15,412 bases of DNA from Thermofilales archaeon (lineage in GTDB: Archaea > Thermoproteota > Thermoprotei > Thermofilales > Thermofilaceae): assembly GCA_028275925.1 (NCBI GenBank), contig JAPWTS010000044.1, positions 1 to 15,412 on the forward strand. Direction: 5' to 3'. Below, one piece after another: positions 1 to 15,412 of the stretch; within the stretch, counting starts at the first letter, position 1, and every line of letters starts with the position of its first letter. The notes under the pieces were generated by a model, which did not search any database, was not told the DNA's origin, and was given only the letters and a program-made list of their open reading frames with translations. The position numbers were made by a program, and so were the translations under genes.

Positions 1-99
1 CTACCGCGGGGGTCACCACAAAGCTCCAGGAGGAGCCGGGCCCAAGCGTTCAACGGGACGAGACCCTCCGCAACGCGCTCTTGCACCGCGCTGCTCCGG
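1..99 (-). CDS. possible N-terminal fragment (~33 codons) of a minus-strand gene that runs off the left edge; candidate GTG start at 99..97
   Basis: The minus-strand frame from GTG (revcomp of cac at 97-99) is open to position 1 and has a high GC third-position bias. A palindromic TTTATAAA box at 133-141 lies about 35 nt upstream. The plus-strand frame through 1-231 has poorer GC3 and would have to read through the AT-rich promoter block. Product unknown. Confidence 0.2.
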
Positions 100-132
100 G
101 CGCGGCCCACACGCCTCCAAGCGAAGCGGAGG

Positions 133-141
133 TTTATAAAT
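133..141 (-). promoter_or_regulatory. TATA-box candidate (TTTATAAAT, palindromic core) in the AT-rich spacer
   Basis: This is the only TTTATA-type element in the AT-rich 130-215 island. It could serve the putative minus gene starting near 99, and a plus-strand reading is also possible. Confidence 0.25.
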
Positions 142-149
142 TCGATGTT

Positions 150-200
150 GAGAAGCCCGAAAGTAATCTTTTCTAAACGGAAAGTTAAAGAAAAGGATAG
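150..200 (-). terminator. oligo-T termination tract downstream of the 328..885 gene
   Basis: The minus strand here reads tccttttctttaactttccgtttagaaaag, a series of T-runs typical of archaeal intrinsic termination. It sits about 130-180 nt after the stop at 328. Confidence 0.3.
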
Positions 201-327
201 AGAAGCGCGCGAGCCATAAGCTCCCTAGCCCCCGGCCAAGTCGCCCCTACTTAGCCACGATGGCCAAAGCGTGAGGAATCGCGAATCGAAACCTAGCGCG
301 CGAGCGTAAACCCTCCCCGCTTTCCCT

Positions 328-885
328 TCAAGCCAGCAGTAGGAGACCGAAGAAGGTGGGCTTCTCCTCGTAGGACGTCACGACCTTGAGCTCGTAGCCC
401 GCGTTGCGGGCTGTCGCGTACACGTCGATCCCGCACGCCTCCATTGAGGGCCTCGCCCTCTCGGGGTGCCTGCAAACCCCCTCCTCCACGTTGCACTCCT
501 CGCAGTAGGGGCAGGGGCCGCACGCCAGCGCGAAAGCCGAGTAGACGCCGGAGAGGAAGGCTGCGCGCTCCAGCTGGAACATCACCTCGTGCACGTTGAC
601 GCCGCTCTCGTAGCCCGCTTCGACGCAGGGCCCGAACTTCACCAGGAGGCACGAGCCGTACTCGCCGAGCACCCTGCGCGTCTCCTCGGGCGTGGGGCTG
701 TAGGGCGGGCATGTGAGGCGGCGCCCGTACTCGCCGCAGCCGAACCTGCACTTCCAGCGGACCCAGTCCCTCACGACGACCGCGCTAGCCGGTAGCGGTC
801 TCGCGTCCTCCGCCCCCAGCTTGAGGGCGAGCTCCCTCAAAGCCTCCAGCAGGGGCCCGAGCTTAGCCCTCAAGTGCTCGGACAC
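328..885 (-). CDS. Cys-rich predicted metal-binding protein, DUF2284/COG5423-like
   Basis: The ORF is 185 aa and starts with GTG at 885. It contains clustered cysteines (CRFGCGEYG...C and CGPCPYCEEC). A TATTTATA box on the minus strand lies 21 nt upstream of the start. The family call comes from the cysteine pattern only. Confidence 0.7.
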   Translation of the reverse strand: MSEHLRAKLGPLLEALRELALKLGAEDARPLPASAVVVRDWVRWKCRFGCGEYGRRLTCPPYSPTPEETRRVLGEYGSCLLVKFGPCVEAGYESGVNVHEVMFQLERAAFLSGVYSAFALACGPCPYCEECNVEEGVCRHPERARPSMEACGIDVYATARNAGYELKVVTSYEEKPTFFGLLLLA

Positions 886-903
886 GCCTTTGCGCCGAGA
901 GCC

Positions 904-913
904 GCGTATAAAT
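904..913 (-). promoter_or_regulatory. TATA box (minus strand TATTTATA) for the 328..885 gene
   Basis: The minus strand reads ctcaccTATTTATAcgcggctctcggcgcaaaggcGTG. The 21-nt spacing from box to GTG fits a leaderless transcript. Confidence 0.5.
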
Positions 914-939
914 AGGTGAGCCCCGCCGAGGCCTGGCGC

Positions 940-2508: not shown

Positions 2509-2523
2509 CTCCCTCCAAAAGGT

Positions 2524-2530
2524 GCTATTT
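2524..2530 (-). promoter_or_regulatory. TATA box candidate (minus strand TTAAATA) upstream of sppA-like gene
   Basis: The minus strand reads gcgTTAAATAgcaccttttggagggagATG. The spacing is 17-23 nt to the two candidate ATGs, and a GGAGGG motif precedes the ATG. Confidence 0.35.
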
Positions 2531-2612
2531 AACGCTCGCGCGCAGCGAGCTGCAGCGAAGGGTATTTGAGATAACGATTATAAAAAAGACTGGAAAAGGA
2601 GTTCGTGAACCG

Positions 2613-3959
2613 CTAACGCTGTTTGGAAGCTGCCGCTATTGCTTGGAGCGCTGCGAGCTGAAGCGGGTACGTAAGCGGAGAGGCTGTGAGGAGCGGCTGC
2701 GTGGCGTAGTTCATTTTCACGATGTCGTAAGCTGTGAGGTGCTGCTGTATAGCTGCGGCAGCGTAGTTGATCGCTTCGCCCACCGCCTCGGGACCGGCCA
2801 TCTGGACGCCCACGAGCCTGAGGTCCCCCTTCGCGAACACCGCCTTCAGAGTGATCTTCGCGGCGCCGGGGAGGTTCGCCGGGTGCCGGTTGACGGCCTC
2901 GACCTTCACCGGCAGCACCTCCAGGCCGAGCTTCTTAGCCGCCGCCTCCGTCAGCCCAGCGGCCGCGAGCGCGAGACCCCCGATGACGGTCGAGAACGCC
3001 GGTAGCGCTCCCTCGAACCCTTTGCCGGGTGTTACGCCGGCGATGTGCATCGCCGCGACCCTCCCTTCGGCGACGGCGATGCTGGAGAAGTAGGCTCTCG
3101 CCGGCTTGCCGGTGAAGTAGTCCCTCTTCTGCGCTACGTCGCCGACAGCGTAGATGTCGGGGTCGCTCGTCCTCATGTACGCGTCAACGACAACGTGCCC
3201 GTACTCGTCCAAGGCTAAGCCGGCTTTCGCGGCCAGCTCCGAGTTCGGCCGAACGCCCACCGAGATTAGAACGGCGTCCGCCGGTACAACCTCGCCCGTC
3301 GAGAGGACCACCTCCTCCACCCTACCCCTACCCCGGATCTCCTTCACGCTCGCTTTCAAATGGAACTTCACACCCCTCTCCTCCAGCTTTTTCCTAGCGA
3401 TCTCCCCGAACTCCCTATCGAAAGCCAAAGCCAAAACCTCATCCAAAACCTCGACAACGTGAACCTCCCTGCCTTTAGCGAGGTCGTCCGCGAACTCGAG
3501 GCCCACGAAGCCCCCTCCCACGATCACGACGCGCTTCGCGTTCCGGAGCACCTCGTAAGCTTTCGCGAGCTGCTCGTACTCCTTGTAGACGAGCACCACG
3601 CCCTCAAGGTCGATGCCGGGTATGTTTAGCTTCACGGGTCCTGCGCCGGTCGCGAGCACGAGCTTCCCGTACTCGAACTCCCTGCCGCCCGCCGTCTTCA
3701 CCAGCTTCCTCGCCCTATCGATCTCAACAACCTCGTCGACGACCAGGTCGACCCCCGCGCTCTTCACCATCGCGTCGGGTATGAGGCAGCCGTCGACCGA
3801 GCCCACGGTTTCGGTGATGTAGGGCACCGAGCAGGGTATCGGCTGCAGCCTCGTCCTGCGCACGATGAGGACGCGGAGGTCGGGCCGCAGGCTCCTCAAG
3901 GCCAGCGCGACGGCCAAACCGCCAGCGCCCCCGCCCACGACCACAACATCGTACTTCAT
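2613..3959 (-). CDS. FAD-dependent pyridine nucleotide-disulfide oxidoreductase, NADH oxidase / CoA-disulfide reductase family (single redox Cys)
   Basis: The GxGxxG Rossmann motif (VVVVGGGAGG) sits 3 residues from the ATG at 3959. The ORF track's upstream TTG at 3980 would fall inside the promoter. A single active-site Cys lies in PIPCSVPY, in the position of Cys42 in Nox/CoADR. A second NAD(P) Rossmann motif (VVIVGGGFVG) and a C-terminal dimerisation domain follow, giving 448 aa. Confidence 0.85.
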   Translation of the reverse strand: MKYDVVVVGGGAGGLAVALALRSLRPDLRVLIVRRTRLQPIPCSVPYITETVGSVDGCLIPDAMVKSAGVDLVVDEVVEIDRARKLVKTAGGREFEYGKLVLATGAGPVKLNIPGIDLEGVVLVYKEYEQLAKAYEVLRNAKRVVIVGGGFVGLEFADDLAKGREVHVVEVLDEVLALAFDREFGEIARKKLEERGVKFHLKASVKEIRGRGRVEEVVLSTGEVVPADAVLISVGVRPNSELAAKAGLALDEYGHVVVDAYMRTSDPDIYAVGDVAQKRDYFTGKPARAYFSSIAVAEGRVAAMHIAGVTPGKGFEGALPAFSTVIGGLALAAAGLTEAAAKKLGLEVLPVKVEAVNRHPANLPGAAKITLKAVFAKGDLRLVGVQMAGPEAVGEAINYAAAAIQQHLTAYDIVKMNYATQPLLTASPLTYPLQLAALQAIAAASKQR

Positions 3960-3983
3960 ACGCGATGCGGTATGCCGCAATCG

Positions 3984-3991
3984 TATAAAAG
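3984..3991 (-). promoter_or_regulatory. TATA box (minus strand TTTTATAC) for the oxidoreductase gene
   Basis: The minus strand reads cTTTTATAcgattgcggcataccgcatcgcgtATG. There are 24 nt between the box and the ATG, which fits a leaderless transcript. Confidence 0.5.
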
Positions 3992-4085
3992 ATTTTCGTT
4001 AGGTTTACACACTAAAATTCGCTAGGATATTCGACTGATAATTGCAAATACCACCGATCGTTTTAGAAATTTAATTATATAGTGC

Positions 4086-4493
4086 TTAGGAGCTTTTGGG
4101 GAGGGTTTTGGTAAGGGCTTCCATATCGGCTTCGAACACGCTCACGACCTCGGGGAGCTGGGCTTTCGCCTCCTCTAAGCTGCCGCTCCACTCCTCCTCG
4201 AGGTTGCCCTTCTTCATGCTCAGCACGCGGATCACGGTGGCGCCCACCTCCCCCACGAAGACGCCGTTCTCGACCCGCTTCACCGGCACGACGGCGACAA
4301 CGGTCTTCTCTTTGGCGAACCTGCCCGGCTTGTACACGTAAGTGATCACGAGCTCGAGGTTCGAGCCAGCCTCGTCCAGCTTGCGCAGGTCGGCGCCGCC
4401 CCTCGACACGTTCTTAGCGGGAGCCGCCTCCTGAGCCACCCTACTGTAAATGTTCACGAGCGCCTCCGGATTTGTGAGCCTGAAGTTTTGCAT
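4086..4493 (-). CDS. hypothetical protein (135 aa), no recognisable family
   Basis: I chose the internal ATG at 4493 as the start (MQNFRLTNPEAL...). A TTTATAAGG box lies 22 nt upstream. The upstream part of the ORF-track version (from 4589) would overlap the neighbouring gene and its promoter. Coding-like GC3 is present. Confidence 0.6.
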   Translation of the reverse strand: MQNFRLTNPEALVNIYSRVAQEAAPAKNVSRGGADLRKLDEAGSNLELVITYVYKPGRFAKEKTVVAVVPVKRVENGVFVGEVGATVIRVLSMKKGNLEEEWSGSLEEAKAQLPEVVSVFEADMEALTKTLPKSS

Positions 4494-4514
4494 GGTGCGC
4501 TCTGCGCAGCATCC

Positions 4515-4523
4515 CTTATAAAC
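4515..4523 (-). promoter_or_regulatory. TATA box (minus strand TTTATAAGG) for the 4086..4493 gene
   Basis: The minus strand reads ggTTTATAAGGgatgctgcgcagagcgcaccATG. The box lies inside the 3' end of the upstream QueT-like gene. Confidence 0.4.
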
Positions 4524-4524
4524 C

Positions 4525-5046
4525 TTACTTAGGGGGCGCCCCTTCAAAGAACCTTTCGAGCGCCACCGCCAGGGAGGTCCCCAGGACACCTATCGCCAGC
4601 AAGGACCCCGGCACTACGCCGGTTATGCTCAGCCAGAGCGGTACTTCGGCGCCGAACGCCCACTCCAGCAGGAACTTCAGGTACGACCCCACGATGATCG
4701 AGACCACAGCGATCTCGCAGCCCGCGGCGAGGATCTTGCTCCTCAACCCTTTCCGGTAGGCGATCCTGTAGGCGAGGTAGCTGGCGAGGAAGTTGGCCGC
4801 GCTCCCCAGCACCGCGTCGATCGCGGCGAGCAGCGCCGAGCCCCAAGGCGCTGCCATCAGGTTCCCCAGGAAGCAGCCGAGAGTGACGCCGACGACCGCG
4901 GGCCACCCGAGCACCGTGCTCAGCATCAGGAGCGCGTCGGCCAGCCTCACCTGCCACAGGAGGAACGAGATCATGGGGAGAGCTGCCACGAGCGCAGCGT
5001 ACATCGCCGCCACCAGAGCCGCTACCGCGATCCCTCTCGCGTTCAC
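4525..5046 (-). CDS. small polytopic membrane protein, QueT / ECF-transporter S-component-like
   Basis: The protein is about 173 aa with 5-6 hydrophobic helices. It begins RGIAVAALVAAMYAALVAAL, typical of S-component-like substrate-capture proteins. I chose the GTG at 5046 as start because the minus-strand TTTTTAAG box at 5073-5080 lies 26 nt upstream. The ATG at 5067 from the ORF track is the alternative. The family call is tentative. Confidence 0.55.
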   Translation of the reverse strand: MNARGIAVAALVAAMYAALVAALPMISFLLWQVRLADALLMLSTVLGWPAVVGVTLGCFLGNLMAAPWGSALLAAIDAVLGSAANFLASYLAYRIAYRKGLRSKILAAGCEIAVVSIIVGSYLKFLLEWAFGAEVPLWLSITGVVPGSLLAIGVLGTSLAVALERFFEGAPPK

Positions 5047-5072
5047 GCGGTGCCCGAGAAACCCCACTTAAA

Positions 5073-5080
5073 AACGCGCG
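5073..5080 (-). promoter_or_regulatory. TATA box candidate (minus strand TTTTTAAG) for QueT-like gene; a divergent weak TTAAGTAG box at 5098-5105 on the plus strand may serve the 5134 gene
   Basis: The 86-bp divergent spacer between 5046 and 5134 contains both elements. Confidence 0.35.
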
Positions 5081-5133
5081 CTCGCTGCCGCGCGCCAAGC
5101 TTAAGTAGACACCGGCTTCCCGCTGCCGGAGGT

Positions 5134-6873
5134 ATGGCTGCGCGCAGCCCGAGCCTCCCGAGAGGCGTTGCGCGCCAGCGGAATGCTGGGAGAGAGGCGG
5201 GAGGTGGAGGGGGCCTCCTGAGGAGTATCGCGCTCCTGCTGGGGATCGCGCTCTCCCTTGCCACTATGCTCTCCTCCACCTGGCTCTCGCTGGTTCCTCT
5301 CCTGCTCCTCGCTGTAGGCGCCGGGCTGAAGTACCCGGGGCAGGGAAAATTCGGCGTGAAAGCCTTCCTCGCGGTTCTTGCTCTCGCAACAGTTCTCGTC
5401 CTCCTCTTCCTCTTCGCGACGGTGCCGCCCCTCTACCTCTCCTGGATCTCGCTCTTCGGCTTCCTCCTCCTGCTCTCGCTCGGGAGCCCTAAGCGCCTGC
5501 TGCTCTTCCTAGCCCTCCTCGTGGCTGTGCCGCTCCTCCTTGCGGCGCTGAAGGGCTACTTCACGGTGACCTCTTGCAATATAGTTAGGGTCGGGTCCCC
5601 CGAGGAGTTGAAGAGCCTCTTCAGCAACCCCGGCTCGGTTGTGCTTGTCGGTCACGCAATGGCGGACGCGATCGCGCACGCGCAGCTATCGCCGAACGAA
5701 AGGGTGGCGGAGTGGGAGGAGGTGGTCATCGACGGGGCCCCCTACTGGATCTTCGCCGTCACCCCCCTCAACACGATTGCGGAGAACTACGTGAGCAAGC
5801 TGATCCTAGTCCACGTCCAGACGGGAGAAGTGAGAGCGATCCCCGTGCGCATGCCCGTGGGCTCCGGCCTCTGGCTGGCGAACAACATCGAGATGAGAAC
5901 CCTTCTCGCGACGGCGCAGCCCGTGGGGAACACCTACCCCTTCCTCCACGACGGCAAGCCCTACTTCGCCGCTTGCGCGAACACCCTAGCGTACTTGGGG
6001 CTCGTTGAGTGCCCCGGCGAGGTTTACGTCTACGACGAGAGCGGGAACGTGAGGGTCTCCAGGCAGTTCAGCGGAGACGCGTCCATGCCGGAGAACTACG
6101 ATTGGGAGTACCTGGACTGGTACGTGAAGGAGTGGCTGTACTACCTTTCGGGCCTCTCCCCCGTCAGCTTCACGCTGTTCCCGAGGGGCTTCCTCTGGAT
6201 CCCCGCGAGCCCCTACAGCCAGGATCTGCTCAACATGACGCTCCTCCTGCCCGGGAGGTTGGGGGGTACGGTCAGGGTCTACTTCGGCGTCAGCCCCAAC
6301 AACCCCAACAGCGTAGTCTCGATCATCGTGGTGAACAACACCGGCGTCTACTACTACGACGTTAAGGGGCTCGGGATCTACAGCCCCTTCTACGTCCAAT
6401 CCCTCGTGCAGGCTAGGCTTCCGGCGATCAGCGGCGGGTACCTCTACGCGAGGTACGCTCAGCTGATCTACTCGAGCGGCTACCTCTGGGTTGTGCCGAT
6501 CTACGCCCGGACGAACGTGGTCTCCCTGTGGGGTCTCGCGGTGGTGAACGCCACGAACCCCTCTGAAATGAGCATCCACCAGTACTCCCCGAGCTACGGC
6601 TCTTACGCAGACTTCCTAACCGCGGCGATCGCCCCCGGCGCCGCGCAAGCGGGTCGGCAGCTCTGCGAAGTAATCCTGGGCAACGTGACGCGCACCCTGC
6701 AGTTCGTCTACAAGGGCGACACCTACCTCGTCCTCGAAGTTGACGGGAAGCTGCTCTACGCGACCCCGGATATCGGCTTCGAAGCCTTCGCGAAGCTTCT
6801 CACGGTGAGGAGCGGGGACCGCGTGAGGCTGTGCGTCAGCGGCGGCAGGATCGTCCAGGTCGCTGAGCCCTAG
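5134..6873 (+). CDS. polytopic membrane protein with a large (~430 aa) extracytoplasmic domain, function unknown
   Basis: The start is set at ATG 5134 (MAARSPSLPRG...), because the ORF-track start at 5050 would include the divergent promoter. A basic N-terminus precedes 4-5 TM helices (residues ~30-170). The Cys-poor ectodomain carries several N-x-S/T sequons (NMT, NNTG, NATN, NVTR) and aromatic-rich segments (YDWEYLDWYVKEWLYY). No family match is recognised by eye. Confidence 0.75.
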   Translation: MAARSPSLPRGVARQRNAGREAGGGGGLLRSIALLLGIALSLATMLSSTWLSLVPLLLLAVGAGLKYPGQGKFGVKAFLAVLALATVLVLLFLFATVPPLYLSWISLFGFLLLLSLGSPKRLLLFLALLVAVPLLLAALKGYFTVTSCNIVRVGSPEELKSLFSNPGSVVLVGHAMADAIAHAQLSPNERVAEWEEVVIDGAPYWIFAVTPLNTIAENYVSKLILVHVQTGEVRAIPVRMPVGSGLWLANNIEMRTLLATAQPVGNTYPFLHDGKPYFAACANTLAYLGLVECPGEVYVYDESGNVRVSRQFSGDASMPENYDWEYLDWYVKEWLYYLSGLSPVSFTLFPRGFLWIPASPYSQDLLNMTLLLPGRLGGTVRVYFGVSPNNPNSVVSIIVVNNTGVYYYDVKGLGIYSPFYVQSLVQARLPAISGGYLYARYAQLIYSSGYLWVVPIYARTNVVSLWGLAVVNATNPSEMSIHQYSPSYGSYADFLTAAIAPGAAQAGRQLCEVILGNVTRTLQFVYKGDTYLVLEVDGKLLYATPDIGFEAFAKLLTVRSGDRVRLCVSGGRIVQVAEP

Positions 6874-6905
6874 CTGGGTGGCTTCTCGCCGCCCCGCTTC
6901 TAAGG

Positions 6906-6923
6906 CTGCCTGCGCGCGGGCAG
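6906..6923. terminator. near-perfect palindrome / hairpin (ctgcctgcgcgcgggcag) between convergent genes
   Basis: The 18-nt inverted repeat lies in the 74-bp spacer between the stop at 6873 (plus strand) and the stop at 6948 (minus strand). It is a candidate bidirectional terminator or protein-binding palindrome. Confidence 0.25.
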
Positions 6924-6947
6924 TAGGGTGGACCGTCGGCTCGCTGC

Positions 6948-7592
6948 CTAGGAAACCTCTCTGGAGCTGGTGCCCGGTAGGGCTCGGAGGATCGCGGCTG
7001 CGCGGTCCAGCGCTCTGGCGGCTTCCGCGCCCAGCTTCGCGTCGCCGCTCAAGCGGACCAGCTCGGGGACGAAGGCGGCCACCTCCTCCTTCAACCTCGA
7101 AAGGTGCCTCAGCCTTGCCTCCTCGCTCGCGGGCTTCTCGCACTGGAGCTTCGGGCCGCCCTCCATGAAGCCCTCGGGGAAGTACCAATCCTTGAACCAC
7201 GTGAAGCCGAGCTGGAAGAGGAGGAAGCCCAGCCTCGTGGCAGCGGGCGGAGCGCCGAGCCTCAGGAGCTTCGAGGTCTCCGCGTCGTACGTGTACTCGA
7301 TGAAGAGCGACTCCCCACCCCCCAGCCTCTCCGCCAGAAGCCCGAGCAGGAGCGCCTCGAGCTCCGAGCCGGCGAAGGGGGTCCTGCGCCCTCCCACCTC
7401 GACCTCCGGCAGGACCGCGAACACCTCAACCCACCTGGCGTAGTAGGGCGGCCGCCCCGCGAAGCACTTCACGACGAGGAGCCGGGCGCCAGCCCCCGGG
7501 CCCAGGTAGAGCTCGTAGTTCGCCTCCTCCCGGAAGCGCCCCCTCCTCTTAACGACCCTCAGCTGGGGCTGCAGCCTCTCGAGGAAGGTCAA
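6948..7592 (-). CDS. conserved hypothetical protein (~214 aa from TTG 7592; ORF open up to 7706), co-transcribed with ferredoxin
   Basis: The ORF is open from 7706 but has no ATG or GTG there, and the first 62 nt overlap the ferredoxin gene. The first in-frame start after the ferredoxin stop is TTG at 7592, preceded by GAGGAG. The sequence contains an FIEYTYDAE...GFTWFKDWYFPEGF core and a C-terminal helical tail. The start codon is uncertain. Confidence 0.55.
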   Translation of the reverse strand: MTFLERLQPQLRVVKRRGRFREEANYELYLGPGAGARLLVVKCFAGRPPYYARWVEVFAVLPEVEVGGRRTPFAGSELEALLLGLLAERLGGGESLFIEYTYDAETSKLLRLGAPPAATRLGFLLFQLGFTWFKDWYFPEGFMEGGPKLQCEKPASEEARLRHLSRLKEEVAAFVPELVRLSGDAKLGAEAARALDRAAAILRALPGTSSREVS

Positions 7593-7644
7593 CGGCTCCT
7601 CGCAGAACGCGAGAGAAAAACCGCTTTGGAGCCCGCCTCCCCCG

Positions 7645-7875
7645 CTACTCAACCGTGATGGCCCCCGTCGGGCAGCCCTCGGCCGCGGTTTTCGCGTCGT
7701 TCGCAAGGTTGTCCGGTATCTCGCCGATCGACTCGCTCTCCGTGTCCACCTTCCTGTACGGCTCCTTGACCCTGCTCTTGAAGGTGTTCGGGTCCTCCTC
7801 GAAGACCTGAGGAGCTAGAGCCCAGCAGGCTCCGCAGCCGATGCACAGCGTTTTATCGACCCTCACCTTCGGCAT
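7645..7875 (-). CDS. fdx: ferredoxin, single [4Fe-4S]/[3Fe-4S] cluster type (Pyrococcus/Thermotoga Fd-like)
   Basis: The protein is 76 aa. It has the motif CIGCGAC near the N-terminus and a distal Cys in AEGCPTGAI. Its size and Cys spacing are typical of small single-cluster archaeal ferredoxins. Confidence 0.85.
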   Translation of the reverse strand: MPKVRVDKTLCIGCGACWALAPQVFEEDPNTFKSRVKEPYRKVDTESESIGEIPDNLANDAKTAAEGCPTGAITVE

Positions 7876-7904
7876 GCTTATCGAGCCCCCACCCCGCTCC
7901 CGCT

Positions 7905-7912
7905 ATAATAAT
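7905..7912 (-). promoter_or_regulatory. TATA box (minus strand TTATTATA) for the ferredoxin operon
   Basis: The minus strand reads aTTATTATAgcgggagcggggtgggggctcgataagcATG, with 28 nt between the box and the ATG. Confidence 0.45.
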
Positions 7913-7958
7913 GTTGCTGCCGCGCGGCCGCCCGCCGGTAAGCTTCAGGAGGTAAAAG

Positions 7959-7966
7959 TTTTATAC
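7959..7966 (+). promoter_or_regulatory. TATA box (TTTTATAC) for the ATPase gene
   Basis: There are 23 nt between the box and ATG 7990, which fits a leaderless transcript. Confidence 0.55.
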
Positions 7967-7989
7967 TTTTGAGTATTATACTTCGGAGC

Positions 7990-9378
7990 ATGCTATTCGT
8001 CGACAGGGAGGAGGAGCTCGGGGTCCTCGAGGAAGCCTACAGCAGTGGGAGGTCCCAGATGGTCTTGATCTACGGGAGGAGACGGATAGGGAAAACGTAC
8101 CTCATCGCGCGCTTCCTCAGGGAGAGGGGAGGGGTGTACCTCTGCGTCAACCACGAGGAGCGGGAGCTCGCCTTGAGGGATTTGGTGGAGCAGCTGCTGG
8201 CGCAGCTGCGGCTGCCCTACGCGCCGCGCGTGAGCAGCTTCAGGGACCTCTTCGAGCTCCTCGCGGCTGCGGGAGCGCGCGTGGTCGTTGTGGACGAGTT
8301 CCAGCGCCTGCTGAAGGCCGGAGGTTTGACGGAGCTCCAGCACGCGTGGGATCAGAGGTTGTCGAGGAGCGGGATCCTGCTCGTGCTCTCGGGCTCCGCG
8401 GTCGGCGCGGCAGAGAGGGTGGGCCTATCGCACGCTTCGCCGCTTTTCGGTAGGGTTACGAGGGTGCTGAAGGTCGGCGAGCTCGGCTACAAGGCCGTCC
8501 GAGCCTTCCTGCCCGGCTACCCGGAGGAAGATAGGGTGAGGGCGTACGGGGTCTTCGGCGGGGTTCCCGGCTACCTGGCACTCCTCAACCCGCGGCTGAC
8601 GTTGGAGGAGAACGTGGCGAAGCTCGCTCTGGAGCCGGGGGCGCCGCTGCGCGAGGAGCCCGTGATCCTGCTTAAGCTCGAGCTCAGGAACCCTTCGAGG
8701 TACGCCGAGATCCTGCGCGCGATAGCGGGCGGCGCAACCCAGTTCAGCGAAATCGCCGACAAATCCGGAGTGAAGGTGACGGAGCTGCCCAAGTACCTGA
8801 GGGTGCTGGAGGAGGACTTGGAGCTCGTGGAGCGCAGGTACCCCCTGCTAAGCGAGGGCTCGAGGAGGAGGGCCAGGTACTACGTGAGGGACCGCTTCAC
8901 GAGCTTCTGGTTCAGGTTCGTCTACCCGAACAGGGTTCTCCTCGAGCTAGGTCTCCACCGGGAGGTTGCCTCGCGGCTCCCGGAGGCCCTGGATCGGCAG
9001 GCCTCGGAGGCGTTCGAGGAGGTGGCGCGCCAGCACTTCGCGCTGCTGGCGAAGAGCGGGCGCGTGAGCTTCACGAGGATAGGCCGCTGGTGGTCGGGCG
9101 ACGTCGAGATCGATCTGGTCGCGATCGACGAGCGGCGGGGCGTCGCGTACTTCATCGAGGTGAAGTGGACCAGGCAGCCGGTCGGGAAGGAGGTGCTCCG
9201 GAAGTTGGAGAAGAAGGCGGAGGAGTTCCCGTGGAGGAGGGGGGAGAGGAGGGAGGTGTACGTGCTCTACAGCAGGTCCGGCTTCGCGTTCGAACCGGAG
9301 GAGGGCGTCCTGCTCTTCTCCCTCTCCGACGTTCAGCGCGACTTCGAGCGGGAAAGGCCGCTGGTGACCGAGCTGTGA
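7990..9378 (+). CDS. archaeal AAA+ ATPase (Arch_ATPase PF01637-like) with C-terminal DUF234 / PD-(D/E)xK-like domain
   Basis: I chose the ATG at 7990 (MLFVDREEELGVLEE). The ORF-track TTG at 7969 lies within the TATA box. The Walker A motif is GRRRIGKT and the Walker B motif is VVVVDEFQ. The N-terminal FVDREEEL motif is typical of this family. The C-terminal RIGRWWSGDVEIDLVAIDE...YFIEVKW segment is a DUF234-type nuclease-like fold. Confidence 0.85.
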   Translation: MLFVDREEELGVLEEAYSSGRSQMVLIYGRRRIGKTYLIARFLRERGGVYLCVNHEERELALRDLVEQLLAQLRLPYAPRVSSFRDLFELLAAAGARVVVVDEFQRLLKAGGLTELQHAWDQRLSRSGILLVLSGSAVGAAERVGLSHASPLFGRVTRVLKVGELGYKAVRAFLPGYPEEDRVRAYGVFGGVPGYLALLNPRLTLEENVAKLALEPGAPLREEPVILLKLELRNPSRYAEILRAIAGGATQFSEIADKSGVKVTELPKYLRVLEEDLELVERRYPLLSEGSRRRARYYVRDRFTSFWFRFVYPNRVLLELGLHREVASRLPEALDRQASEAFEEVARQHFALLAKSGRVSFTRIGRWWSGDVEIDLVAIDERRGVAYFIEVKWTRQPVGKEVLRKLEKKAEEFPWRRGERREVYVLYSRSGFAFEPEEGVLLFSLSDVQRDFERERPLVTEL

Positions 9379-9383
9379 GCTCT

Positions 9384-9845
9384 CTAGCTCAGCTTGAGGC
9401 TCAAGCGCTGCCTTCGAGCCGGCGGCACCTCCCCCCTCTTAATCCTCTCGATGAGATCGACGACCCTCCGCTTTATCTCGTCTCTAACCTTCCGAGCTTC
9501 CTCGAGGCTCATGCGGGCGGGGTCGGGGATCTCCCAGTGCTCCACGTACCTCGTGTACACCGTGGGGCACGTGCCCGACTCCGACTCCCCGCACACGACT
9601 ACGCCGATCTCGGCGATCCTCTGCAGCTCCGGGGTGAGCGGCTTCGGCTTCTTCCCCGAGATGTCGATGCCCTCCTCCAGCATCAGCTTGACCGCGTTGG
9701 GGTGAACCTCCTCCGCCGGCTTGCTGCCGGCGCTAACGGCCCGCCACCCGGGAGGGGCCATCGCGTTGAAGTACGCTTCCGCCATCTGGCTCCGGAACCT
9801 GTTCTCCGTGCAGACGAAAAGCACGATTCGCTCGGACCCGCCCAC
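9384..9845 (-). CDS. arsC: low-molecular-weight phosphatase-fold protein, thioredoxin-coupled arsenate reductase (ArsC)-like
   Basis: The P-loop is CX5R (VCTENRFRSQMAEA). The distal Cys pair (VVCGESESGTCP) matches the Cys82/Cys89 pair of Bacillus/Staphylococcus ArsC. A GTG start lies at 9845, with a minus-strand TTAAATA box 21 nt upstream. The stop is only 5 bp from the convergent ATPase stop. Confidence 0.75.
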   Translation of the reverse strand: MGGSERIVLFVCTENRFRSQMAEAYFNAMAPPGWRAVSAGSKPAEEVHPNAVKLMLEEGIDISGKKPKPLTPELQRIAEIGVVVCGESESGTCPTVYTRYVEHWEIPDPARMSLEEARKVRDEIKRRVVDLIERIKRGEVPPARRQRLSLKLS

Positions 9846-9866
9846 AGCGCGAGCTTCGACTGCCGG

Positions 9867-9873
9867 TATTTAA
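9867..9873 (-). promoter_or_regulatory. TATA box (minus strand TTAAATA) for arsC-like gene
   Basis: The minus strand reads gcTTAAATAccggcagtcgaagctcgcgctGTG. Confidence 0.45.
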
Positions 9874-9900
9874 GCTCTGCTCGACGGGCGTTGCCGGGTG

Positions 9901-10317
9901 CTAATCAGGCCAGTACTCCGGCGGCGCGCTCCTCCTGAGGGTGGGATCGCCGCTCAACCTCCAAAAGCCGGAGCGGGGCGCGACGATCTCGATCCCCAAG
10001 GCCTCAGCGAGCGCATCGCTAATCAGCACCTCGTGCTCTCCGGGCACGCTCACCGCCCGAGCAGTCAACCATGGGGTTTCGCGATCCTCGAGCAACAGCT
10101 TGACTTCCACTTGCCCCAGCACGTACGCCATGGTATCGGCTCCTACGACCCTGTACCTCTCGCCCTTTAGCGCCTCCAGGCTGAACGACAGCTTCTTCGC
10201 TAGCGCGAGGGGGATGTGCAGCTCCGGCTCGTCAGCCTCGTACCCGCTGTTAACCAGCGCGCTCGTCTTCGCCGCGCGCTCCCCCCTCTTTATGCTCAGC
10301 AGCACGTAAACTCCCAT
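9901..10317 (-). CDS. small retropepsin-like (clan AA aspartic-protease fold) protein with Asn in place of the catalytic Asp
   Basis: I chose the ATG at 10317 (138 aa). The ORF track also allows TTG at 10335. The segment TSALVNSGYE aligns with the hydrophobic-hydrophobic-D-T/S-G-A signature, with D changed to N. The C-terminal VLISDALAEALGIEIV segment resembles the retropepsin dimer-interface motif (hh-G-x-D-x-L). No TATA box lies directly upstream, so it may be co-transcribed with the IPCT/DIPPS-like genes. Confidence 0.5.
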   Translation of the reverse strand: MGVYVLLSIKRGERAAKTSALVNSGYEADEPELHIPLALAKKLSFSLEALKGERYRVVGADTMAYVLGQVEVKLLLEDRETPWLTARAVSVPGEHEVLISDALAEALGIEIVAPRSGFWRLSGDPTLRRSAPPEYWPD

Positions 10318-10330
10318 CGGACCCCACCCT

Positions 10331-10398
10331 GACAAGCCTGCCGAACCGCTTCCTAGCTCGCTTCAGAAGCACGCTCCTGCTGACGAGCCTGCCAAACC
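10331..10398. repeat. two imperfect 17-22 bp direct repeats (gacaagcctgccgaacc / gacgagcctgccaaacc) 51 bp apart
   Basis: Coordinates are 10331-10347 and 10382-10398, matching at 15 of 17 positions, and they lie at the start of a 222-bp non-coding spacer. Two copies are too few to call a CRISPR array. This is a candidate transcription-factor binding pair. Confidence 0.3.
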
Positions 10399-10557
10399 TC
10401 CCCATTCCACCCGCTCCGCGGTCAACGTTGCGGGGTCTTTTTAAGCTTTCAGCGGCACCGGCGCAGCGCGAAGCCAGACGCATAAGCCGAGCGAAGGCTT
10501 TCACTCGCGTCTTTTCCGCGCGTTTCGCAATTCCCGCGGGGTCAAGCAGCACTGGTG

Positions 10558-11736
10558 TTAAGCTTCCCGCGCTGAGCGTTTACGGGAGTGCGTTGAGAGG
10601 CGCATTAGCTGCGCGGTGCCCTCTCTTTCGTCCAGCTCCCTCAGGTGGCGGGTGGCTCTTACGAAGTACACGGCAGCGGTCAACGACGCGTGAATGAGGG
10701 CGGCGAGGAGCGCCAGCAGGGGGTGCCCCGCGGCAGAGAAGGCGATGGCGTAGATCAGGTAGACGTTCCTCCTCCCGTCGACAAAGGCGAAGGCCCTGTC
10801 GAAGGGGGTGTAGTGCTTCAGCGGTTTACCGGCGGTGAGCGCGAACTGGTTGTAGACGTGCCTTACGAAGCAGTCCACGACGAGGAGAGCCGTCCCCAGC
10901 GCGGCGGCGAGGAAGCCGTAGCCGTGAAGGGCGAGGCCGAGCGCGAAGGACGCGTAGAGCGCCTGCTCGTAGAGCGCGTCGAGGGAGTGCTCGAGGTGCC
11001 CGAACTTCGTGAGGACCCCCCGCACTCGCGCCAGCTTGCCGTCAACACCGTCGAGGATCCCGAGGAGGTACGAGAAGGCGGCTGCAGGCAGGAACTGCCC
11101 GTTGGCAAACAGCAACACAGCAAGCAGCGAGAGAGCGTTAACCGCGAGGGTCACGCGGTTCGGCGTAACAGCTCTGCAATCGCCGAGAAGCTTGACCAAC
11201 GCGTTCTCAAGGGGCGCGTTGAGGACCGAAGTGAAGTGGACGCCCTTCTGAGCCCAGCGCACCAGCGCGCGCCTAGCAGCTTCGAGATCGCCAGCGTAAA
11301 CGCACGCCGGCCTGTGGCGGGGCTCCGCCAGCTCGTCGAGCTCCACCGAGCGGCCGGCGCCGCGAGCGGGCTTCTCCAGCACGGGCTTTCCCGCGTGCAC
11401 CCCCCTCGCGTAATCCCCTTCGACGAACCGCCTCAGGGCGCCCGGCTCCACCAGGAAGTCGGCTTCGACGAGAAGCTCCGCGTCGGCTGGTAGCGGCGCA
11501 CCCGGTGCGAGGTACTCCACCTCTACACGCAGGGATACCCCTCGCAGCAAAGCCTCCACAGCGTCCAAAACTCCGCGCTCAGCGGCAACGACGAAGCTCG
11601 TGAAACCCAAGCTCTTCAGAGCCGAGATCCACCGAACCACCACCGGCGTCCCGAAGTGCTCGAGGAGGGCTACTGGCGTCGGCCCTCCCCGCCCGTTAAA
11701 GAAGCCTCGGAAGCGGAGGACGGCTTTACGCCTCAC
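10558..11736 (-). CDS. IPCT/DIPPS-like bifunctional-architecture protein: N-terminal degenerate nucleotidyltransferase-fold domain + C-terminal CDP-alcohol phosphotransferase membrane domain (candidate di-myo-inositol-phosphate phosphate synthase)
   Basis: The protein is 392 aa. The C-terminal domain carries the CDP-OH phosphotransferase core DGVDGKLARVRGVLTKFG...SLDALYE (D-G-x2-A-R-x8-G...D-x3-E) embedded in about 6 TM helices. The N-terminal ~165 aa align with the MobA/GlmU-like fold (PTPVALLEHFGTPVVVRWISALKSLGFTSFVV), but the glycine-rich NTP loop is atypical (GFFNGRGG). The GTG start overlaps the upstream gene stop by 11 nt (GTGAGGCGTAA). Confidence 0.75.
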   Translation of the reverse strand: MRRKAVLRFRGFFNGRGGPTPVALLEHFGTPVVVRWISALKSLGFTSFVVAAERGVLDAVEALLRGVSLRVEVEYLAPGAPLPADAELLVEADFLVEPGALRRFVEGDYARGVHAGKPVLEKPARGAGRSVELDELAEPRHRPACVYAGDLEAARRALVRWAQKGVHFTSVLNAPLENALVKLLGDCRAVTPNRVTLAVNALSLLAVLLFANGQFLPAAAFSYLLGILDGVDGKLARVRGVLTKFGHLEHSLDALYEQALYASFALGLALHGYGFLAAALGTALLVVDCFVRHVYNQFALTAGKPLKHYTPFDRAFAFVDGRRNVYLIYAIAFSAAGHPLLALLAALIHASLTAAVYFVRATRHLRELDEREGTAQLMRLSTHSRKRSAREA

Positions 11737-13564
11737 CTTCGCCCACCGCCTCAGTCACGCTCTTCAACGCGCGCTTGAAGGCGTCCTCGAACGTCGCGTA
11801 AACCACCTTGACGAGGTCGTAAAGGAGCACGACGACTATCGTTAGCAGCGCTAGAGCGGCCGCGCGCGACAGGACGCTCCCGAACACCGGCACGGGCTGC
11901 AGGGCTTTCGGTACGAAGGCCAGCGCCAGCCAGGCTGCAAGGAGGTACAGCGCGTCCAAGCCTATGTGCCTGGCTACGCTCTCCGTCACCCCGAGAGCCC
12001 TCACCACCTTCACAGCTAGCGCGTCCACGAGGACCTTCGCCCCGATCAGGACCCTGTACCCGTAGTACACGGTGACCACGAGCGCTAAAAGCGGCACCAC
12101 GTCCCCCACCTTCAGCTCCAGCCATTCGAGGTTGAGGAGGACCACGTCGCCGAGGTAGCTCTGCGCGTAGGAGAGCACCAGGAGGGCTAGCGCCAGCTTG
12201 AAACCGCTCGCTGCGGCCGCCCTCAGTTTACGCTCCGCGCGCTTCACCCCCGCTCCGAGCCTGGGGAACGCTTCACCGGCAGGCTTAGGCGGTGCAGCCA
12301 GCACCTCCCCGGGCCACGCGGCAGCTAGGTTGCTGCAAACCCAGTAAGCTAGGGCGGCCGGCCCGAAGCCCGCAAACGCGATCGCAGCCGTCGCGGCGTA
12401 CTTCAGGAGGGGGTCCGCAACCCACGCCGACCTGCCCGGTCTACCCCCTCCGCGCCCAAGGAAGATTGGTACCGCCGAGCTGGCCGCCGCGAGCGCGGTA
12501 AGCGCGTGAGGGACTCGCTCGCCTAGCGCGGTCGCGATTAGCGAGAGGACGCCCACCTCCGCGACCAGCTCGGTGAGCGCGACGACCCTCACCAAGCCCT
12601 CCCCCCTCCGCGCTAAAACGGCGGCGAGGTCGGCTAGGTCCCCGAGGAAAGCAACCGCGTATAAAAGCGCGAAAGCTAGAAGCGGTTGCAGGTGTGGGGT
12701 AGCGATCAGCGCTAGCGCTCCGAGCGCGAGAAGAAGCGCCGCTGCTAGGAGCGCCGCTCTAGCCCGAGCGTTGGGGGGTTCGAGAGAAGCGAGCCTTAGC
12801 GTCGCAGGTCGGATGAGCGCTAGCGTCAGCGGCCCCGAGCACCTCTTCCCGTAATCCCTGATGAGGATCTTCTTGAAAAGCGCCCTAGCTTTCGCTAGGT
12901 CTTCAACAGTGTCCACGTCCTTCCAGAGGAGGCCCGTTACGTCTACGTAATCCACTTCGCCATCCTTAGCCGCTAGGTCGAGCGCATCGCCGATCGACGC
13001 AGTGGGCCCCTTCTCCGAAATCACCCTTTCAACGTAAGCGTAAGCCTTCTCCCTAACGAGAATCAAGCCCGTGTCGATACCGTACCTCGATTCCAGGTTC
13101 TTCCCGACCGCGACCACGACACCCCCGGCGAGCTTCACTTTCAAGCCCTCCTGGGCCTCCGCGCGGGAGGGTTTCCTGTCGAGGCACACGGTGAAAGCCT
13201 TGCTCGAGCGGTGGGAGAGGACGCGCTTCAGCATCTCGTACTCGAAAACGTGGTCGGACATCGCGACGAGGAACGGGGGTTTCACGTGCTTGAGGGCCGT
13301 GTACACGCTGTACAGGTTGCCAAACTCTTCTCTATCCACAGTTAAGACCACCACCGAGGGGCCGAGCTTGGAGCGGAACGCTTCGACGAACTCCTTCCTC
13401 GTAACTAGGTAGACCGGCGAGAGCCCAGCTCTCCTGAACCTCTCTAGTATGAACTCGGCAATCGTGAGACCAGGCTCCAGCTCCATGAGGCTTTTCGGCC
13501 GCTCTTCCGAGTAGGGTCTCAGCCTGCTCGCAACACCGCCCGCGACGATGACGACGGGGAGCAT
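11726..13564 (-). CDS. nucleotidyltransferase (cytidylyltransferase-like, canonical G-loop) fused to a large ~370-aa polytopic membrane domain with only a degenerate CDP-alcohol-transferase-like motif
   Basis: The start is set at ATG 13564 (MLPVVIVAGGVASRLRPYSEERPKSLMELEPG), which carries the canonical NTP-transferase signature. The ORF-track TTG at 13675 lies in the AT-rich promoter. After about 240 aa come 10 or more hydrophobic helices. They contain the segment DLADLAAVLARRGEGLVRVVALTELVAE, which echoes D-x2-D-G-x2-A-R-x8-G-x3-D-x3-D with DG lost and the Asp residues changed to Glu. Confidence 0.75.
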   Translation of the reverse strand: MLPVVIVAGGVASRLRPYSEERPKSLMELEPGLTIAEFILERFRRAGLSPVYLVTRKEFVEAFRSKLGPSVVVLTVDREEFGNLYSVYTALKHVKPPFLVAMSDHVFEYEMLKRVLSHRSSKAFTVCLDRKPSRAEAQEGLKVKLAGGVVVAVGKNLESRYGIDTGLILVREKAYAYVERVISEKGPTASIGDALDLAAKDGEVDYVDVTGLLWKDVDTVEDLAKARALFKKILIRDYGKRCSGPLTLALIRPATLRLASLEPPNARARAALLAAALLLALGALALIATPHLQPLLAFALLYAVAFLGDLADLAAVLARRGEGLVRVVALTELVAEVGVLSLIATALGERVPHALTALAAASSAVPIFLGRGGGRPGRSAWVADPLLKYAATAAIAFAGFGPAALAYWVCSNLAAAWPGEVLAAPPKPAGEAFPRLGAGVKRAERKLRAAAASGFKLALALLVLSYAQSYLGDVVLLNLEWLELKVGDVVPLLALVVTVYYGYRVLIGAKVLVDALAVKVVRALGVTESVARHIGLDALYLLAAWLALAFVPKALQPVPVFGSVLSRAAALALLTIVVVLLYDLVKVVYATFEDAFKRALKSVTEAVGEGEA

Positions 13565-13594
13565 TTGGCGGCACAGAAAGCTCGCACCGTTCGC

Positions 13595-13606
13595 TAAAAA
13601 TTTTTC
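13595..13606 (-). promoter_or_regulatory. TATA-like box within the perfect palindrome AAAAATTTTT, serving the 13564 operon
   Basis: The minus strand reads gcggAAAAATTTTTAgcgaacggtgcgagctttctgtgccgccaaATG, with about 30 nt from box to ATG. It lies in a bidirectional AT-rich spacer shared with the encapsulin gene. Confidence 0.4.
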
Positions 13607-13714
13607 CGCTAGCGCACTAGGGTATACCGGAGGCATTAATACTCTAAAAATTCTTGCATATATTTCAAGTGCCAACCCCTTGAAAGCTTTCGCGCTAGGG
13701 GAAAGTGCTCGTAG

Positions 13715-13728
13715 AAAATCATATTAAC
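13715..13728 (+). promoter_or_regulatory. TATA-like box candidate (AAAATCATATTAAC) for the encapsulin operon
   Basis: It lies about 32 nt upstream of GTG 13760. Alternative AT-rich elements sit at 13634-13668. Confidence 0.3.
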
Positions 13729-13759
13729 CGACCTCCCTACCGCTCACCGGGGACGAGGC

Positions 13760-14809
13760 GTGCTGTCTAAGCACCCGCTGGATCTCCCTCCGGGCAGGAA
13801 GCTGTCTAGGGAGGAGGTTGCCGACGCGCTGAGGCTTTCCATAATCGCGGAGCTCGACGCCGTGAGCCTCTACCTCCAGCTTGCTCGGGCGATCGAGGAC
13901 GAGCGGATGAGGAGGGTGTTCGAGGACATCGCGCGCGAGGAGAAGACCCACATCGGCGAGTTCCTCGCGGTGCTGAAAAGCCTTGACCCCGAGCAGGTTG
14001 AGGAGCTGAAGGCTGGAGCGAGGGAGGTGGCGGAGCTCACCGGCGTCGCGGTCCCCGACCCGCCTCAAGCCGAGGCCCAAGCCGAGCCGTTGACGGCCGA
14101 AGAGTGGAGCTACCTTCTGAGCCAGTTCAGGTCCGCCGCCGACTCCGCTAGGGTGTTCAGGCGCCACCTCCCGGTCACCCGGGTCGGCAGGGGCGCTTAC
14201 GCGGTTCCTCTCGAGAAGCCGGGAGGTCAGGGCGAGGTTCTACCGCTGAAGGAGCTGGCGGTCAAGTTCCGCTTGAGCCAGCGGGCTATCGACTACGCGA
14301 GAGCGGCGAAGCAGCCGCCGGAGCTCGCGGACGCGCTTAGGGCCGCGGTGGAGCTCGGCTCCAGCGAGGACAGGGTGGTGCTGGAGGCGCTCGCGAACCT
14401 GAAGGAGGCCGTTAGGCTCCCGGCCACGAGCTGGGACGAGCCCGGGGCCGCTTTGAGCGAGATCGCCGCCGCTGTCGCCGAGCTGGTCAAAGCCCAGGCG
14501 ACCCCACCCTTCGTCGCCTTCGTCAGCTCCGGCAGGTACGCGAAGCTGCTCGCGGTGCACGAGAGGACCGGAGTCATGGAGCTGACTAGGGTCAAGGCGC
14601 TGGCCGAAGTGGTCGCGACCCCCTCGCTGCCCGACGACACCGTCTTCGTCGTCTCAGCCACCCCCAGGGTCCTCGACCTCGTGCTCGGCGCCGACACGGA
14701 GGTGGCTTACCTGGGCCCCGAGGACGGCTACCACGCGTTCAGGGCCTGGGAGACGGTAGCCGTGAGGGTCAGGTACGAGCGCGGCGTCGCCGTGCTCAAG
14801 CAGAGGTGA
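13760..14809 (+). CDS. Family-1 encapsulin shell protein with N-terminally fused ferritin-like (Flp) domain (Pyrococcus furiosus PfV-like)
   Basis: The protein is 349 aa with a GTG start. The N-terminal ~100 aa (LRLSIIAELDAVSLY...AREEKTHIGEFLAVLKSLDPEQVEELK) is a ferritin-like domain carrying E and ExxH iron ligands. The rest shows encapsulin/HK97-fold landmarks: HLPVTRVGRG, GRYAKLL...TGVMEL, ATPRVLDLVLGADTEVAYLGPEDG. It is collinear with PfV across the whole length. Confidence 0.88.
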   Translation: MLSKHPLDLPPGRKLSREEVADALRLSIIAELDAVSLYLQLARAIEDERMRRVFEDIAREEKTHIGEFLAVLKSLDPEQVEELKAGAREVAELTGVAVPDPPQAEAQAEPLTAEEWSYLLSQFRSAADSARVFRRHLPVTRVGRGAYAVPLEKPGGQGEVLPLKELAVKFRLSQRAIDYARAAKQPPELADALRAAVELGSSEDRVVLEALANLKEAVRLPATSWDEPGAALSEIAAAVAELVKAQATPPFVAFVSSGRYAKLLAVHERTGVMELTRVKALAEVVATPSLPDDTVFVVSATPRVLDLVLGADTEVAYLGPEDGYHAFRAWETVAVRVRYERGVAVLKQR

Positions 14810-15291
14810 GGGGCGTGGAGGCTGTAGCCCAGGCTCTGCGGAGGCTGGCCGAGGCGGAGCGCAAGTACGCGGAGGAGCTGAGGGGGCTCGCCGAGTCGGT
14901 GAAGTACGCCACGGTGATCGGCGCCGTGATCGAGGCGATCGCCAGCGACTCGGAGAAGCACGCCGGCCTCTACGAGGCGATGCTGAAGATCGTGGTCGGC
15001 TGGCACCAGCCGGGTCTCGTGCGCGAGGACCTGAAGCTCGTGGCCCAGGTCATCGACCGGCACATAGAAACTGAGAGGCGGATGATCGAGGAGACGAGGA
15101 AGCTGCTCGAGGAGGTCGCGGACCCCAGGATGCGACTGCTGCTCGCGGCGATCTACGAGGACGAGGTTAAGCACCACCGCGTGCTCACAGACATCAAGGG
15201 TAAGATCGCGAAAGCGGAAACGCTCTCGGAGGAGGAGTTCTGGGAAGCCGTTTGGAGGGACAGCCCCTGGCACGGTACGCCCGGAGGCTAA
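14806..15291 (+). CDS. stand-alone four-helix-bundle ferritin-like / rubrerythrin-like diiron protein, translationally coupled to the encapsulin
   Basis: The protein is 161 aa. The GTG at 14806 overlaps the encapsulin TGA (aGGTGAgg). Glu-rich helices (AEAERKYAEEL, ETERRMIEET) and the motifs SEKH and EDEVKHH match the E / ExxH ligand pattern of ferritin-like proteins. I see no obvious C-terminal encapsulin-targeting peptide. Confidence 0.7.
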   Translation: MRGVEAVAQALRRLAEAERKYAEELRGLAESVKYATVIGAVIEAIASDSEKHAGLYEAMLKIVVGWHQPGLVREDLKLVAQVIDRHIETERRMIEETRKLLEEVADPRMRLLLAAIYEDEVKHHRVLTDIKGKIAKAETLSEEEFWEAVWRDSPWHGTPGG

Positions 15292-15308
15292 CGCGCTAAA
15301 CCAACCTT

Positions 15309-15327
15309 ACCTCTTTTTACTTTCTGT
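15309..15327 (+). terminator. oligo-T terminator (cctctttttactttctg) after the encapsulin operon
   Basis: A T5 run and a T3 run lie 18-35 nt after the stop at 15291. This is typical archaeal intrinsic termination. Confidence 0.4.
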
Positions 15328-15332
15328 CGCGC

Positions 15333-15412
15333 TCAGTTCCCTCGCTGAGAGAGCAGCACGGCGATCTCGGCGAGCACTTCCTCTTCTCCCTTCCCGCTTT
15401 CGACCAGCTGGT
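15333..15412 (-). CDS. C-terminal fragment (~26 codons) of a convergent minus-strand gene entering from the right edge
   Basis: The minus frame reads QLVESGKGEEEVLAEIAVLLSQRGN, with a stop at 15335-15333 and good GC3. It is too short to assign a product. Confidence 0.3.
   Translation of the reverse strand, partial: QLVESGKGEEEVLAEIAVLLSQRGN

Follow-up and report, generated by a model that had tools for sequence, protein, structure and literature searches.

The window analysed here comprises positions 1 to 15,412 (forward strand) of contig JAPWTS010000044.1 (assembly GCA_028275925.1) of a Thermofilales archaeon, near the 3′ end of which lie two adjacent genes, one for an encapsulin shell with a fused ferritin-like protein (Flp) domain and one for a separate ferritin-like protein. 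These are two same-strand open-reading frames (ORFs), ORF1 at 13760–14809 (+, GTG start, 349 aa) and ORF2 at 14806–15291 (+, GTG start, 161 aa), which overlap by the four letters GTGA, exactly as an initial annotation made from the sequence alone had placed them. The coding features are as follows:

13760–14809, plus strand: ORF1, Flp-fusion family 1 encapsulin shell, 349 aa, GTG start (full-length alignment to 2e0z)
13790–14095, plus strand: predicted N-terminal EncFtn-like (Flp) ferroxidase domain of ORF1, residues 11–112 (EncB_fam, Rubrerythrin, EncFtn-like and 5n5e matches)
14084–14782, plus strand: HK97-fold encapsulin shell domain of ORF1, residues 109–341 (encap_f1 over residues 109–341, Linocin_M18 over residues 110–334)
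14815–15291, plus strand: ORF2, rubrerythrin-like four-helix-bundle protein, 158 aa, or 161 aa from GTG 14806 (Pfam, alignment and AlphaFold2 (AF2) model)
15241–15288, plus strand: nearly invariant C-terminal tail of ORF2, W146-EAV-W150-RDSPWHGTPGG-COOH, a short helix followed by an end of low predicted local distance difference test (pLDDT) score (family alignment)

In the C-terminal region of ORF1 the Pfam model Linocin_M18 (PF04454) matched residues 110–334 (E = 1.2e-29) and the NCBIfam equivalog encap_f1 (NF041155) matched residues 109–341, the latter barely over its cutoff (101.4 bits against 100), which bears out the encapsulin/HK97 assignment proposed for this region. The N-terminal domain was recognised by the NCBIfam model EncB_fam (residues 11–112, 3.6e-22) and, over residues 22–94, by Pfam Rubrerythrin (1.8e-09) and EncFtn-like (3.9e-05). 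The best PDB match was the Pyrococcus furiosus virus-like particle (PfV; 2e0z, E = 1.6e-52), collinear from end to end (1–346 against 1–344) as had been suggested, followed by the excised P. furiosus EncFtn domain (5n5e, 1.2e-26) and then by many classical encapsulins; the solved encapsulins matching the shell domain by sequence were 2e0z, 9i8e, 6nj8, 4pt2 and 7s20. A motif scan placed the candidate Flp ligands at E31 and E61-K-T-H64, inside D56xxxEExTH64, a pattern (DxxxEExTH) given in a review as the signature of archaeal fusion-FLPs (PMC11202242). Because the shell and EncFtn models both match, the protein is collinear with 2e0z and the archaeal signature is present, ORF1 is, on every defining feature that can be tested at the sequence level, a Flp-fusion family 1 encapsulin. 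It shares with PfV and 5n5e the two-domain architecture, whole-length collinearity, the EncFtn ligand pattern, the DxxxEExTH signature and the family 1 HK97-fold shell, but differs from PfV in its Pro/Ala/Glu-rich linker and in its host, a Thermofilaceae-type crenarchaeon rather than a member of the Thermococcales. An identical 349-aa protein occurs on three public contigs, one in the NCBI metagenome-assembled genome (MAG) GCA_028276535.1 and two in Logan assemblies, and the nearest genomic relatives are Thermofilaceae MAGs.

ORF2 is a separate protein of the ferritin superfamily, confidently predicted to fold as a four-helix bundle. The AF2 model places helices at residues 2–31, 36–63, 73–103 and 107–136 (ORF2 residues are counted from GTG 14806 throughout), with a mean pLDDT of 85 and a predicted TM-score of 0.70. 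The Pfam model Rubrerythrin (PF02915) scored 24.7 bits, marginally over its cutoff of 22.8, and NCBIfam gave zero matches. Nor did Pfam find RUBY_RBDX, the C-terminal rubredoxin-like Cys4 domain, in ORF2, unlike in the separate 183–185-aa neighbours in loci L005, L013, L185 and L194, which do match that model. There are 75 close homologues, annotated solely as ‘ferritin-like domain-containing’, ‘rubrerythrin’ or hypothetical, the named sources of which are all Thermoproteota (Thermofilaceae, Thermofilum, Ignisphaera, Desulfurococcus mucosus). The family is small, since an exhaustive profile search yielded only 748 cluster representatives at E ≤ 1e-3, 197 at ≤ 1e-10 and 32 at ≤ 1e-30. Weak Rubrerythrin matches (E ≤ 0.01) were present in 38 of 45 aligned family members, 26 of the 45 matched the di-iron helix of FA_desaturase_2, and the best natural structural match for ORF2 was 2fzf, an uncharacterised P. 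furiosus protein.

Across these 45 sequences E18, D48, S49, K51, H52, Y56, H86, E90, D119, E120, H123, H124 and P154 are invariant, among them the candidate metal ligands E18, D48, H52, H86, E90, E120, H123 and H124. The initial annotation had credited ORF2 with both ExxH-type motifs, which is half right because E120-V-K-H123 is the only true ExxH: the second half of the site (E90...E120xxH123) is canonical, whereas the equally invariant first half reads E18...D48-S49-x-K51-H52, with Ser where the ExxH Glu is expected. The four-helix fold that it had proposed stands on the AF2 model and the marginal Rubrerythrin match, and the alignment of its ligand residues in part. In comparison with rubrerythrin/sulerythrin-type di-iron proteins (PF02915; 1nnq, 1j30, 2fzf), ORF2 has no rubredoxin domain, replaces the first ExxH by DSxKH, and adds an invariant H86xExE90, H124, short inter-helix loops, a Trp-rich fifth helix and the HG[TA]PGG tail. 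Its sequence places it in an uncharacterised subfamily whose candidate dimetal site departs from the canonical pattern and whose members have to date come only from Thermoproteota.

The junction between the two genes is tightly packed whichever start codon is used, with a 4-nt overlap from GTG 14806 (161 aa) or a 5-nt gap before the other in-frame start, GTG 14815 (158 aa). The GTGA overlap on which translational coupling had been proposed is real as a string of letters, but its GTG is not the conserved start: in relatives the second gene begins at an ATG or GTG 3–6 nt past the shell stop, equivalent to GTG 14815, more distant linked relatives have an ATG 3–6 nt past the shell stop as their sole ORF2 start, and the NCBI annotation of the identical contig also gives ORF2 as 158 aa. 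The real start is thus probably GTG 14815. An AGGTG-type sequence at the 3′ end of the shell gene, resembling that in the window, is also found at Thermofilaceae and Desulfurococcaceae junctions. The putative expression signals around the pair, the first of which sits in a short divergent intergenic region ahead of ORF1, are:

13714–13729, plus strand: A/T-rich TATA-like element gaaaatcatattaacc, ~31–46 nt 5′ of the ORF1 start, which may serve both genes as an archaeal promoter
14803–14809, plus strand: Shine-Dalgarno-like GAGGTGA, lying over the ORF1 stop TGA (14807–14809) and 5 nt 5′ of GTG 14815, function putative
15312–15325, plus strand: T-rich stretch tcTTTTTacTTTcT, 21 nt past the ORF2 stop, putative archaeal oligo-T terminator ending the operon, a reading that follows general knowledge of archaeal termination

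Conservation of the pair was counted in metagenomes from ORF2 outwards, over 65 informative loci, each extending 1.2 kb or more upstream. A fused shell lay directly upstream on the same strand in 30 of the 65, within 6 kb in a further 5 and in neither position in the other 30; adjacent pairs also occur in many Thermofilaceae/Thermofilum MAGs, in loci L179–L181 and on a 1.5-Mb contig (P0059). Linkage tracks clades of the ORF2 tree, and the pairwise identities of shell and ORF2 are correlated (Pearson 0.87 over 30 linked pairs), from which we conclude that the two genes have been inherited as a unit. Counted from the shell, ORF2 is rarer: among 16 species-representative fused-shell loci with downstream room it was adjacent in 4 and nearby in 1, and other fused shells adjoin true rubrerythrins or unrelated genes. 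As few species-level shells carry it and unlinked copies exist, ORF2 is a frequent and lineage-specific accessory rather than an obligatory part.

Some candidate links between unpaired genes were rejected. A shell-only locus (L004/L204) and an ORF2-only locus (L182) could not be joined via a ‘URO-D’ gene, the two URO-D genes proving unrelated by blastn, tblastx and translation, and no assembly accession was common to the unlinked ORF2 copies P0040 and P0019 and the shells P0105, P0083, P0091 and P0081. In Ignisphaera a different conserved protein, of 153 aa and without a Pfam match, is encoded after the fused shell (L175–L178, 11161–11622; L010, ~6160–6622); tested as a divergent ORF2, it gave no detectable likeness to that family (L175/L010; hhalign probability 0.1). 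A stand-alone Flp was likewise discarded as a general upstream partner of unlinked ORF2, as it was found only in D. mucosus and other upstream genes are heterogeneous.

Neither of the grounds on which the locus had been thought novel holds, because surveys and NCBI protein names already cover crenarchaeal fused shells and their neighbours. The architecture had been taken as undescribed and the phylogenetic placement as unusual for a protein best known from Thermococcales; the surveys place Flp-fusion encapsulins ‘mostly in the phylum Crenarchaeota’, often beside genes for non-targeted Flp proteins or rubrerythrins (Giessen & Silver, 10.1101/085266; Andreas & Giessen, PMC8346489). We found 96 fused shells of 345–360 aa, the named sources of which are nearly all Thermoproteota, across Thermofilaceae, Desulfurococcaceae, Ignisphaera, Pyrobaculum, Vulcanisaeta, Thermoproteus, Pyrofollis, Sulfolobales and Korarchaeota, and the NCBI name ‘family 1 encapsulin nanocompartment shell protein’ is already attached to those of Pyrobaculum, Vulcanisaeta, Thermoproteus, Pyrofollis and many MAGs. 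The survey cases are like the present one in that a crenarchaeal ferritin-superfamily gene without a targeting peptide adjoins the shell gene; they differ in that the 158-aa ORF2 subfamily, its HG[TA]PGG tail and the frequency of its linkage are not described in the accessible text, and in that a true rubrerythrin, which has a rubredoxin domain, is present as a distinct further neighbour in some of these loci. What appears from sequence comparison to be new here is an ORF2 subfamily, known to date from Thermoproteota alone, with a nearly invariant tail and often directly 3′ of a fused shell.

We consider it rather probable that the locus encodes a Flp-fusion encapsulin which oxidises and stores iron, together with a co-expressed rubrerythrin-like protein that is soluble and non-targeted. 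In this Thermofilaceae-type member of the Thermoproteota, ORF1 and ORF2 form a two-gene operon and would be co-transcribed. By homology with PfV, 180 ORF1 subunits would self-assemble into a T=3 icosahedral shell with their N-terminal EncFtn-like domains facing inwards. Pairs of these domains would form di-iron centres at which Fe(II) is oxidised, and the resulting ferric mineral would be kept inside the shell. ORF2 would be the ‘non-targeted Flp’ accessory already noted beside archaeal Flp-fusion encapsulins, with a candidate dimetal site built from E18, D48 and H52, H86 and E90, and E120 and H123. The picture we infer for ORF2 itself, from its assembly state and location to its metal binding and activity, is that of a soluble partner in the same iron and oxidative-stress response, which may scavenge peroxide or O2, or handle Fe(II), and need not be packaged. 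The recurrent neighbours of the pair (rubrerythrin, a rubredoxin-like protein, a ZIP metal transporter, NifU and cysteine desulfurase, a P-type ATPase with YHS, ferredoxin, peroxiredoxin and ODP) are consistent with iron handling and oxidative stress.

The chief alternative, which we regard as unlikely, is that ORF2 is a second cargo and that its tail, with the family consensus W...W[RK][DE]SPWHG[TA]PGG-COOH, is a new docking peptide for the shell lumen or for the tethered EncFtn/Flp domains; the operon would then encode a two-enzyme iron or peroxide compartment of hyperthermophilic archaea, with both components ferritin-like, and ORF2 would found a new class of encapsulin-associated protein. 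Several observations favour it and weigh against a soluble partner. Like typical targeting peptides, the tail forms the very end of the protein, varies hardly at all and is of low model confidence, which collapses exactly there (pLDDT 57, 46 and 35 over the last blocks), and the two genes lie 5 nt apart or overlap and are co-inherited. There is also a precedent in the anammox cEnc, a cytochrome-fused encapsulin with a conserved gene downstream for NIR-HAO, a cargo that lacks a targeting peptide; that system is bacterial, has another fused domain and partner and has been shown by experiment to co-purify in part. Finally, the D. mucosus homologue of ORF2 is paired with a free Flp, which hints at an interaction between Flp and ORF2.

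Set against these, the tail fits no known targeting-peptide consensus: none of the 45 family members matched [LF]x[VI]xx[LI] or the LxIGSL type in the last 25 residues, in agreement with the absence of an LxIGSL-type peptide reported for ORF2 at the outset. This separates it from IMEF and encapsulated bacterioferritin, which are likewise full four-helix ferritin-like proteins encoded beside a family 1 shell but carry a canonical C-terminal targeting peptide (e.g. TVGSL) and belong to shells without a fused Flp. The tail was found in no other ORF across 1.44 Mb of related loci, and the motif was not found in the searchable literature; distant family members keep the Trp-rich fifth helix and lose the HGxPGG ending. 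Its conservation is no lower in the 30 loci without a shell inside 6 kb; it is also kept in Ignisphaera and Thermofilaceae loci without one within 6–10 kb, and in D. mucosus, whose ORF2 homologue is preceded by a free 105-aa Flp lacking a shell domain. Conservation without a nearby shell and beside a shell-less Flp therefore weighs against a purely shell-targeting role for the tail, shell absence being judged here within 6–10 kb. Most sampled fused shells have no ORF2 neighbour, and the T=3 lumen, with 180 tethered Flp domains, would leave little room (our deduction from PMC11202242). With no canonical targeting peptide, a tail kept in unlinked loci and few fused shells near an ORF2, the evidence leans against obligatory packaging.

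We think it quite improbable that ORF2 acts on the shell from outside, as an iron-delivery or iron-release partner docking transiently at the pores or the exterior and, for instance, cycling Fe between redox states at its dimetal site. To release their iron, encapsulated ferritins may require an as yet unidentified cofactor or electron carrier (PMC11202242), and such a role would suit both the coupling of the operon and the ZIP metal-transporter, NifU and cysteine desulfurase genes that recur beside the pair; however, ORF2 has no recognisable electron-transfer domain and unlinked ORF2 copies are common. That ORF2 is a helical structural or regulatory protein with only residual di-iron likeness, as the marginal Rubrerythrin score, the blank NCBIfam result, the missing first canonical ExxH and the de novo helical bundles and BAR-like coiled coils among its closest PDB structures might suggest, is very hard to reconcile with eight acidic/His ligand-like positions invariant in 45 diverse sequences and at the same height on all four helices, with a family profile that aligns with designed di-iron bundles and bacterioferritin via the E...EDExxH half, and with the Rubrerythrin match in most family members.

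Gene arrangements around the pair vary between lineages. A four-gene cluster of a rubredoxin-like protein (RUBY_RBDX, ~111 aa), fused shell, ORF2 homologue and ~250-aa protein recurs (L008, 127–2839; L011, 3601–6328; L179–L181, 4546–7289), the last gene being a ZIP metal transporter in L008. In Thermofilaceae/Thermofilum MAGs a true rubrerythrin precedes the shell–ORF2 pair (L006, 2300–6521; L185–L189, 297–4521; L194–L203, 1–4525); one such lineage has NifU, a 77-aa ORF and cysteine desulfurase (Fe-S cluster assembly) between rubrerythrin and pair, and another has a divergent P-type ATPase, YHS and ferredoxin upstream. In D. mucosus (L164–L166; L164, 9669–10477) the free 105-aa EncFtn-like protein, closely similar to the Flp domain of the fused shells, is encoded 15 nt upstream of the ORF2 homologue, and the two are flanked by ODP/metallo-beta-lactamase-type and peroxiredoxin genes; this pair looks like the fused operon minus its shell domain. 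Unlinked ORF2 homologues of one clade (L140, 5265–5955, with equivalents in L141, L144 and L155) are preceded by a conserved 122–125-aa membrane protein and a 95-aa ORF, both Pfam-negative.

In the window itself the operon stands alone, with a divergent NTP-transferase/CDP-alcohol phosphatidyltransferase pair on one side and the window end on the other. The divergent pair (10558–13675, −) encodes a 649-aa protein with an N-terminal NTP_transferase domain and a long hydrophobic C-terminal half, overlapping by 11 nt with a 392-aa CDP-alcohol phosphatidyltransferase, and presumably resembles IPCT/DIPPS, the makers of the thermoprotective solute di-myo-inositol phosphate. An LMWPc gene (low-molecular-weight phosphatase/arsenate-reductase-type) lies a few kb from the fused shell in the window (9384–9824, −) and in several Thermofilaceae loci (L004, 934–1395; the left ends of L185–L189; L204, 953–1414), and this recurrence suggests conserved local synteny. 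A DUF1122 gene (6948–7706, −) lies ~6 kb upstream of the shell, and in other Thermofilaceae MAGs (L182–L184, 5035–5679, −) DUF1122 is directly upstream of, and divergent from, a lone ORF2 homologue. Pfam at E ≤ 0.001 gave no match for the 607-aa ORF at 5050–6873 (+) nor for several ORFs of 140–185 aa; the Pfam-negative ORFs listed for the window are 5050–6873 (+), 4086–5098 (−) and 9901–10335 (−).

As the class of Flp-fusion encapsulins with a non-targeted ferritin-like neighbour is already catalogued, the locus is another crenarchaeal case of it and by itself alters little. What it contributes is the identity of the neighbour, a compact subfamily that several lineages have co-inherited with the shell. 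Should the tail be a docking signal, the rules of encapsulin cargo loading would extend to fused systems and the pair would offer a thermostable two-component nanocompartment for engineering; if it is not, ORF2 would be a candidate member of the archaeal iron and oxidative-stress toolkit.

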